The translations under genes were made by a program, and so were the position numbers. The notes under the pieces are model-generated. The model was not told where the DNA came from, ran no database searches, and saw only the letters and a program-made list of their open reading frames with translations. A stretch of DNA of 64,000 nucleotides from Ptychomitrium polyphyllum (lineage: Eukaryota): contig OZ316776.1 of the NCBI GenBank assembly GCA_973851085.1, forward strand, positions 1-64,000, in the 5' to 3' direction. Below are positions 6,965 to 8,518 of the stretch, piece by piece; position 1 is the first letter of the stretch; every line of letters starts with the position of its first letter.

Positions 6965-8518
6965 CTACGTCTCGAATGAGTCCACTGGACAACGGAATGT
7001 TTCATTGTCCGACCCTAAACCCTCTGGCTTGGCCTTCACATGTCTCCTCCAATTCCTGCCGTATTTGTTGATGAAGTGGCGGGCGCCGGTGACCCGATCC
7101 ACGTACACCCCTTCCATTTTCCAGTACCCGCCTCCTCTCACCTTCTGCAGCATGGTGGGATGGGGGTCCCTCTCCCTCGCCCGACTGTGATTCTGCCAGG
7201 ACGCGTTGTCCAGGAAGTCCTGGATCACGGGCCGGTTGTGCGCATCATCCAGCTCCCAACCGTCGTAGTGGAACAACGGACGCTCTTTCCGTACCTGCTG
7301 ATCCACCACAGCCCCCCCCCAATTCCGAGCGTCCTTGAGGTGACGCCGCATGTGTTTGCCGCTCCATCCGACTGCCTGGCGAGCCCTCGTGAGGGCGGAC
7401 CGCATCGCGATGCTCGGCGTGCAATCGTTCCCGCCCAGTACCAGGCCTTGCAGTATCCGGACCTTCGATCTGAGGTTGTGCAGGACTTCGTGGGCGGAAA
7501 TGCTTTGGGTGCGGAACGGCCCCCCCAGCAATCTCTCGATGCCCTGCAATTGCAGCAGCCCCAGGTCCGAACACATACGGTGGGCCTCCGCGACTGTGTG
7601 GGCACGTGCGATGGACACTTCGATCCTGGTGCCCAGCAGGCGTTCCCTCAACGTCGCACCGTCGTACCCTTCCCATGCTCGTAATAGTTTCTCCATCTGC
7701 TCCGCCCGGATGCGCATGGTGCGGATCGTCTTGGGCATGTCGTCCAGGCTGTGCCTCGGTATGGCGGACAGGACATCATGGCACGGCTCGTGGTAGATTT
7801 TGACCTTCCCGATCCCTTCGTGGCCCGATAGGTAGAACTCCAGGGAGCCGTGGTTGGGAATGTCGAACATCTCGTGTATTTTGCCCTGCCTGAATCTTCG
7901 AACGGGACCGAACTGACCCTCGCCGAAGCAGAGGACATCTATCGTCGCTGCAGGCAGCAGCGTCCCGATGTCGAATTGGTTCCTCCTCCCCACAGCTACT
8001 CTCCCGCGGAGGGCCGTGTGGTACTGCACGAAGCGGTCGATTCTAGGCTGGGCTTTCTGGTAGGCCCACTTCATGCCATAGAACCCCACCCGGCGTTCCA
8101 CATGGCCGCACGCCCGGAGCGCTTCCACCATCGCTCGGAGGGGGACGTTCACCTGGCTCCTGGCGAGGACCATGTCGTGGTTGCTGAGAGTCAGCGCCAG
8201 CCCATGGCCCCTTCGCAATTCCTGGCAGATGGAACGCTTCTGGTCCTCCCTCTCCGCATCCGAGAGCCCTGCATCCACCTTCACGACGATCGGGTCGGAT
8301 ATGACGTGCAACCACTCCCTGTAGAATTCGGAATCCTTCACGCGGATTCTGCGGTTGGCTGGACGCACGATCTCTCCGACCAGGCCGTGTAGATCACGGA
8401 GATCCATCATGAAGCACGCGGAGTCGATATCTGTATGGAGTGGGTCGGCGGTGGTGGATCCGGTCCCCAACCCGGGCTGACGCCCGGGACGCCCGCTGAC
8501 ATTCGCAACAGCGTCCAT
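6965..8518 (-). CDS. Uninterrupted GC-rich 517-aa hypothetical protein; possible Rep_trans-like nicking/replication initiator
   Basis: Intact 1554-bp ORF with globular-protein composition. Ordered motifs are VGFYGMK, QFDIG, GSLEFYLSG, GKVKIY and GTRIEVS. The ORF is directly seen; the functional call is inference only. Confidence 0.7.
   Translation of the reverse strand: MDAVANVSGRPGRQPGLGTGSTTADPLHTDIDSACFMMDLRDLHGLVGEIVRPANRRIRVKDSEFYREWLHVISDPIVVKVDAGLSDAEREDQKRSICQELRRGHGLALTLSNHDMVLARSQVNVPLRAMVEALRACGHVERRVGFYGMKWAYQKAQPRIDRFVQYHTALRGRVAVGRRNQFDIGTLLPAATIDVLCFGEGQFGPVRRFRQGKIHEMFDIPNHGSLEFYLSGHEGIGKVKIYHEPCHDVLSAIPRHSLDDMPKTIRTMRIRAEQMEKLLRAWEGYDGATLRERLLGTRIEVSIARAHTVAEAHRMCSDLGLLQLQGIERLLGGPFRTQSISAHEVLHNLRSKVRILQGLVLGGNDCTPSIAMRSALTRARQAVGWSGKHMRRHLKDARNWGGAVVDQQVRKERPLFHYDGWELDDAHNRPVIQDFLDNASWQNHSRARERDPHPTMLQKVRGGGYWKMEGVYVDRVTGARHFINKYGRNWRRHVKAKPEGLGSDNETFRCPVDSFET

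Follow-up and report, generated by a model that had tools for sequence, protein, structure and literature searches.

The window analysed here, a 64,000-nucleotide stretch of Ptychomitrium polyphyllum DNA (contig OZ316776.1 of assembly GCA_973851085.1), carries a multicopy element whose inner end is fixed and abuts telomere repeats. The intact open reading frame (ORF) at 6965-8518 belongs to this element, and its 517-amino-acid (aa) product is predicted to share the TBP-like β-sheet fold of Rep_trans nicking enzymes. On balance we favor a reading in which this protein is a Rep_trans-fold tyrosine nickase that copies the element between chromosome ends as DNA; the enzyme is predicted, and the cutting, displacement and joining of strands are inferred. 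The fold match behind this reading is moderate but consistent, and the anatomy of the element is well supported. The original prediction, made from the sequence, had already suggested that the protein may be a Rep_trans-fold tyrosine nickase, and overall our analysis supports it.

Conserved residues of the 517-aa protein

The ORF is intact over 517 aa on the minus strand, and its motifs lie where they had been predicted, with QFDIG at 7964-7978, KVKIY at 7793-7807 and RIEV at 7616-7627; HGSLEFYLSG lies at 7823-7852. Taking the RepD residues for comparison from PMC4797284, the gene and its key positions are as follows.

6965-8518, minus strand: gene of the 517-aa protein, with a predicted Rep_trans/TBP-like core (about residues 25-340) and a helical C-terminal part
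8423-8431, minus strand: D30-x-D32 on the first predicted strand (E29-39); D32 is, from motif order, the likely counterpart of the metal ligand D46 of RepD
7964-7981, minus strand: N180-x-F-D183-x-G; D183 is the likely counterpart of RepD D142
7793-7801, minus strand: K240-x-Y242 on predicted strand E236-243; Y242 is the predicted nucleophile, compare R189-x-Y191 of RepD
7619-7627, minus strand: R298-x-E300 on predicted strand E297-304, likely counterpart of RepD R212-x-E214

The protein had been called an orphan, which it is not: one search found seven homologue clusters with identities of 42-60%, and another gave 179 representatives at E ≤ 0.001, of which 150 were listed. A repeat profile search added no further homologues. 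The profile alignment comprises 170 aligned stretches from 168 proteins, and the counts given here are of stretches covering each column. By column conservation the motifs exceed chance. Y242 is the most conserved column listed (70/71), and E300 (67/69), R298 (62/68), K240 (67/71) and D183 (53/62) are likewise kept. D30 and D32 are each retained in 55/58; D32 was absent from the original prediction. Because the structural residues F182, F335 and W385 are conserved to about the same degree, conservation by itself cannot pick out the active site. The lysine that follows the tyrosine in known enzymes is missing as described, position 244 being E in 45 of 68 stretches and K in 11 of 68. The proposed T-x-Y-x-G strand is a loose match: G224 (61/68) and F228 (55/68) are conserved, but neither T nor Y occurs at the positions concerned.

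A predicted Rep_trans fold

The top fold matches of the protein model are Rep_trans/TBP-like with moderate scores, and identity in the structural matches to Rep_trans proteins is 6-13%. D32, D183 and E300, the candidate metal ligands, lie on separate predicted strands in the same order as D46, D142 and E214 of RepD. The basic residue that stands two before the tyrosine on a strand in RepD (R189-x-Y191) is present as K240-x-Y242, an equivalence by motif order and not by superposition. RepD R140 and K193, basic residues connected with religation, have no counterparts, as position 181 is variable and position 244 is mostly E.

Pfam assigned the 517-aa protein to no family at E ≤ 1, a PHROGs search returned no family (best E 0.09) and a sequence search of the PDB gave no match. 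Rep_trans (PF02486) is not among the 25 listed of the 55 Pfam families matched by 129 members, each listed family coming from a single member. Comparison of the homologue profile with one RepC reached a probability of 0.13; 80 RepC loci were too alike for a useful profile and were not used. HUH and helicase domains had no Pfam match in the frames of the element, the best model matches being Rep_trans/TBP-like instead. An RNA-dependent RNA polymerase cluster was the top Atlas row (0.93, low recognition), and we dropped this assignment because neither fold search backs it.

A multicopy unit at the chromosome end

4-1037, no strand assigned: terminal array of the plant-type telomere repeat (AAACCCT)n, 147.7 copies, capping the outer end of the unit after AGG on the G strand
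1038-11610, minus strand: whole multicopy terminal unit, about 10.6 kb, running from the fixed inner end toward the chromosome end on the G-rich strand and flanked by telomere tracts; depth falls past about 11,700
11611-11703, no strand assigned: internal degenerate telomere tract of 13.6 repeats, which may be the remnant of a former chromosome end that received the unit

We compared positions 1038-13000 with four public runs (X1, X2, X4 and X5), two of which, X1 and X2, may represent the source sample. Individual X1 contigs within the unit have depths of 1,580-3,740 with 0-1 differences over 1.1-1.6 kb, compared with a depth of 68 just past 11,700. X2 reaches 11,916 inside the unit and 466 outside, X4, which bears another organism code, shows about 1,100-2,100 and no coverage past 11,811, and X5 contains scattered pieces of the unit only. 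The depth of the unit is thus roughly 25-55 times that of its flank, a ratio of depths and not of copy numbers. Depth climbs stepwise toward the inner end, and a contig joining telomere repeats directly to position 9047 is present in X1, X2 and X4; the copies therefore share their inner end, differ in their outer cut point and are telomere-capped. Five further telomere-to-interior joints occur in X2 only and were given little weight because many joints of that run sit at a GATC site (8992) and resemble proximity-ligation chimeras.

The unit is GC- and CpG-rich relative to host DNA, with a CpG observed/expected ratio of 0.93 compared with 0.61-0.66 further in. The ORF had been placed in an otherwise decaying region; the near-identical high-depth contigs and the undepleted CpG show instead that it lies within a young multicopy unit. 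Among the frames of at least 80 aa in the unit, Pfam found no other relevant match and no reverse transcriptase (RT), and in the unit's frames no capsid, helicase or polymerase domain. Besides the homogeneous high-depth family, X1 contains a diverged gene copy of low depth (7028-8419, depth 51) with 167 differences over 1391 bases.

The telomere junction is shared across lineages

11597-11617, minus strand: fixed inner end, a candidate origin and nicking site, reading TTTAGGG/TTACAAGAGCGTCC on the G strand behind the degenerate tract
17780-17994, minus strand: older inner-end relic, telomere tract 17957-17994 and then TTACAAGAGTGTCCC, whose sequence is more like that of the metagenome ends

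Scanning metagenome contigs gave 32 loci with relatives of the gene at 35-55% identity in the best segment, forming 22 clusters at 98%. The inner end at 11610 resembles the junctions adjoining these homologues, which read TTTAGGG/TTACATnnGTGTYCC. Strict telomere tracts occur in 8 of the 32 loci, and a tract or junction motif in 9 of the 22 clusters, many of the rest being too short to reach there. All 23 starts of the metagenome end follow a G run, 17 of them a strict telomere repeat, with some of these starts being internal sub-repeats or redundant loci. Across lineages the junction keeps the same register after GGG, even behind tracts of one or two repeats. The junction pattern has four matches in the window and none in 100 simulated sequences, the pattern having been derived from those same matches. 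Beyond 11610, the window holds a similar junction at 17956, and two more, at 20130 and 29796, are degenerate.

The metagenome units vary in build. Locus L001 is a 3.2-kb unit between two tracts with the Rep-fold gene as its sole long frame, L007 is a head-to-tail array of truncated units, and L002 has telomere tracts separated by units of 9 and 45 bases. Both lineages share the Rep-fold gene and no other. In most metagenome units, as in the window, its ORF is on the G strand; in L001 and L003 it is inverted relative to the inner end. No origin hairpin of significant fold energy was found at the inner ends; 7 of 16 listed motif variants could form a very small stem, GGG-TT-ACA-nnnn-TGT-CC, whose loop varies, without covariation. 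Each inner end also has, about 150-170 bases further inside (11400-11470 and 17740-17790), a stem with telomere-like arms (TTAGGGT...ACCCTAA) whose fold energy, at a z of about -1.6, is not significant.

Homologues in mosses and fungi

The organisms among 28 proteins looked up by exact sequence include Physcomitrium patens, with at least five near-identical homologues, Ceratodon purpureus and the chytrid Fimicolochytrium jonesii, in which two identical homologue genes are neighbors. The acidic triad and the tyrosine are conserved as far as the chytrid protein. This protein (P0112) has an extra Cys-rich segment with a weak zinc-ribbon match (E 0.094). The Ceratodon genes 8G000100, 8G000200, 3G000300, 8G000500 and VG001200 bear numbers among the first on their chromosomes, and 6G225000 is probably near the end of chromosome 6, as its accession, going by the numbering, comes just 35 before that of VG001200. 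An unrooted tree of 48 rows covering the core, with shorter fragments excluded, served only for viewing motif conservation.

Comparing L001 with 11 other metagenome loci gave dN/dS of 0.13-0.33, and by this measure the Rep-fold gene is under purifying selection. Many broken gene copies exist alongside few intact ones. An internal tandem duplication of about 730 bases within the ORF occurs in L010, L014, L017 and L025-L027, and L029-L032 have a 900-base insertion in it. Plasmids and phages searched by tblastn gave no relatives, nor did viral contigs and prokaryote genomes searched with exact peptide patterns, a method of low reach.

A second gene with a telobox-type Myb domain

3555-4737, minus strand: second gene, encoding a C-terminal TRF-like (telobox-type) Myb domain (Pfam Myb, E 7e-9) behind an N-terminal part that belongs to no known family
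2822-6409, no strand assigned: paired non-coding modules; the downstream pair, one behind each gene, is 2822-3353 and 5762-6409, at about 70-77% identity

For the Myb region, the best 21 of 29 matches to solved structures are telomere repeat-binding factors. The window copy of the gene is split by one extra base near 3834, which the majority contigs of X1, X2 and X4 lack, at full depth; most copies would therefore form a single ORF of about 393 aa. No homologue of the N-terminal part was found in searches with lengths of 172-550. Telomere binding by the second protein is not assured, because some C-terminal Myb proteins are described as requiring an extension to bind telomeric DNA (PMC10167121). 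Together with an upstream pair of modules, one ahead of each gene (5245-5464 and 9039-9252, 68% identity), the downstream pair gives the two genes of the unit the appearance of sitting in duplicated cassettes.

A proposed route from chromosome end to chromosome end

The proposed route starts from the anatomy seen here, a conserved inner end abutting (TTTAGGG)n on the G strand and variable, telomere-capped outer ends. D32, D183 and E300 are predicted to bind a metal ion, and Y242 to cut the G strand at, or at most two bases from, the boundary between GGG and TTACA, staying on the 5' end of the element as in RepD. A host polymerase would extend the freed 3'-OH and displace the element strand toward the chromosome end, where no termination signal would be required because the template runs out. 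The tyrosine-linked 5' end would then be joined to a TTTAGGG 3'-OH of another end, either a natural overhang or a nick made by the same enzyme. The host would fill in the second strand, and what had been the telomere would persist as a short tract inside the chromosome. The outer end would be truncated, through incomplete copying or later erosion, before telomerase caps it, and truncation with capping would give head-to-tail arrays in which the inner part is present in more copies than the outer. In this lineage the TRF-like Myb protein would aid telomere targeting. Rep_trans enzymes are described as leaving a free 3'-OH and a 5' end bound through tyrosine (PMC4797284, PMC13107129), so that nick, displacement and transfer would yield the observed anatomy.

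Two observations weigh against a strictly telomeric life of the element. Loci L009, L022-L024 and L029-L032 are broken copies within long contigs and without a junction, and none of the 32 metagenome loci had the Myb gene nearby.

The main rival is an RNA route of the Terminon type, which would make the same anatomy (PMC6431247). Here, as in Terminon/Athena or HeT-A-like retroelements, an RNA would anneal through 3' C-rich repeats to the overhang, RT would be supplied in trans by an endonuclease-less Penelope RT or telomerase, and the Rep-fold gene would be accessory cargo. Terminons are reported with a fixed telomere-joined inner end, capped truncations, head-to-tail arrays, a trapped host gene and Rep cargo (PMC6431247). 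The window likewise has a GCN1 fragment (13127-13552) between tracts, and L001 and L003 have their ORF in the orientation that such an RNA would need. In the window and most metagenome units, however, the ORF is antisense to the needed template, and an RT domain is lacking both from the unit frames of at least 80 aa and from 10 long frames of metagenome units. There is no Rfam match in window positions 1000-21000 or in L001, L004 and L007, and a simple hammerhead core was not found at three inner ends, where a divergent ribozyme could escape. The Rep-fold gene is moreover the one gene the lineages share and is under purifying selection. We hold this route to be unlikely. A nickase that does not join strands is rather improbable in our estimate. 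Its nick at the junction would collapse forks or prime break-induced replication between telomere tracts, spreading and homogenizing the unit. Yeast Y' elements are spread and homogenized by recombination, and the copies here are nearly identical. The fold and motif evidence serves this reading as well as the one we favor, and R189 and K193, critical for religation in RepD (PMC4797284), count in its favor insofar as K193, like R140, is unmatched here; R189, on the other hand, may be replaced by K240. The constant register after GGG speaks against it, as tracts of just one or two repeats at some junctions offer little homology for recombination.

We see a slim chance that the unit is a plasmid- or virus-like replicon with an extrachromosomal rolling circle that integrates at telomeres, free copies adding to the depth. 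Rep_trans enzymes initiate the replication of plasmids and inoviruses (PMC4797284, PMC13107129), and the unit's base composition, richer in GC and CpG than host DNA, would fit. Yet the plasmids, phages, viral contigs and prokaryote genomes held no relatives at the sensitivity used, the unit has no capsid, helicase or polymerase domain, and depth steps down toward the outer end where a circle would be even. Finally, it is very improbable that subtelomeric duplication has passively multiplied what is either a host gene or a non-catalytic protein with a TBP-like fold. Subtelomeres duplicate readily and the fold scores are moderate, but broken copies are many and intact ones few, arrays of truncated units exist (L007), the conserved telomere-joined end accompanies the gene across lineages, and the acidic triad and tyrosine persist as far as the chytrid.

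Neighboring DNA

The stretch 12300-17700 contains a fragment of host GCN1 (Pfam GNC1_N, E 2e-23, 13127-13552) with an internal telomere tract on either side, and 12347-12528 and 16618-16799 form an internal duplication; the fragment may be a piece of host gene trapped between units. We considered 11704-17956 as a second element and rejected it on account of the GCN1 fragment and the low depth there. Degenerate junction-like motifs at 20130 (minus), 29796 (plus) and 30525 (minus) lie within old AT-rich repeats; those at 29793-30525 are in inverted arrangement, and 19861-20140 resembles 30252-30532 (71%). Old non-autonomous derivatives may account for these motifs, or else a repeat that is unrelated and happens to have telomere-like ends. 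A young LTR (long terminal repeat) retrotransposon occupies 21235-28996, with protease, RT and integrase in Gypsy order and LTRs (21235-22382 and 27849-28996) that are 99.1% identical. A second LTR retrotransposon lies around 52400-58700.

Relation to known systems

The nearest known enzymes are Rep_trans proteins (PF02486; RepC, RepD and RepDE of pT181-type plasmids, RepSTK1, inovirus initiators), which supply the top fold matches and share the order D...D...basic-x-Y...R-x-E on separate strands. The 517-aa protein differs from them in lacking a Pfam match and an R140 or K193 equivalent, in its structural identity of 6-13% and in its inserted and C-terminal helical parts, and its gene is joined to telomeres on a nuclear chromosome and not carried by a circular replicon. 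Rep-Arvir (DUF7845), a family from archaeal viruses and plasmids that is likened here from its published description only, is also related to Rep_trans visibly by structure alone and has a KHY basic-x-Y motif without the YxxK lysine; its acidic triad is similarly spaced (E25, D207, Y283, E303, compared with D32, D183, Y242, E300 here). Unlike our protein it is archaeal, fused to a MarR-like winged helix-turn-helix and associated with a hairpin origin (PMC13107129).

Helitrons and Replitrons are copy-and-paste DNA elements with a catalytic tyrosine, and Replitrons are present in mosses (PMC10288648, PMC6431247), but their HUH fold is unrelated to Rep_trans (PMC4797284). The main text of the Replitron paper makes no mention of telomeres (PMC10288648). 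Terminons/Athena and Drosophila HeT-A/TART share the G-rich telomeric attachment, polarized head-to-tail arrays, capped truncation and captured host genes (PMC6431247, PMC12477314), and Terminons can carry Rep ORFs (PMC6431247). In contrast to the unit, in which the Rep-fold gene is the core gene, they depend on RT, and Terminons also on a hammerhead ribozyme, neither of which was found here.

Yeast Y' subtelomeric elements and telomere-integrated HHV-6 are likewise protein-coding DNA units of telomeres, with telomere repeats lying between them and the chromosome. Y' encodes a helicase and spreads by recombination, while HHV-6 is a herpesvirus with a Rep homologue. To our knowledge neither has a Rep_trans-fold enzyme.

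Significance

We give an even chance to the broader proposal of a new order of eukaryotic DNA transposons. Its Rep_trans/TBP-fold tyrosine transposase, of a kind reported so far only in bacteria and archaea, would target telomeres, take the chromosome end as termination signal and ligate its strand to telomeric 3' ends, lengthening and rescuing short telomeres without reverse transcription; the order would be active in mosses, among them a model species, with relatives in fungi. No paper on this telomere-joined element or on Rep_trans at telomeres came up in our literature search, which did not extend to subscription journals, Repbase or supplements. In a paper from 2026 the Rep_trans enzymes are taken to be bacterial, alongside one sister family in archaea (PMC13107129). 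A review from 2025 describes telomere-associated transposons as rare in plants and, for plant chromosome ends, names no elements other than Penelope-like and LTR retroelements (PMC12477314).

If the reading is true, it would add a new kind of eukaryotic jumping gene, a eukaryotic transposase chemistry unrelated to that of HUH, DDE or RT enzymes, and a way of extending chromosome ends with new sequence through DNA alone. It is directly testable, as Physcomitrium patens is open to gene targeting. Moss telomere blots have shown unexplained sharp internal telomere-hybridizing bands (PMC10856949), for which we suggest the element as a candidate source. A telomere-specific strand-joining enzyme might also become a tool for end-targeted DNA insertion.
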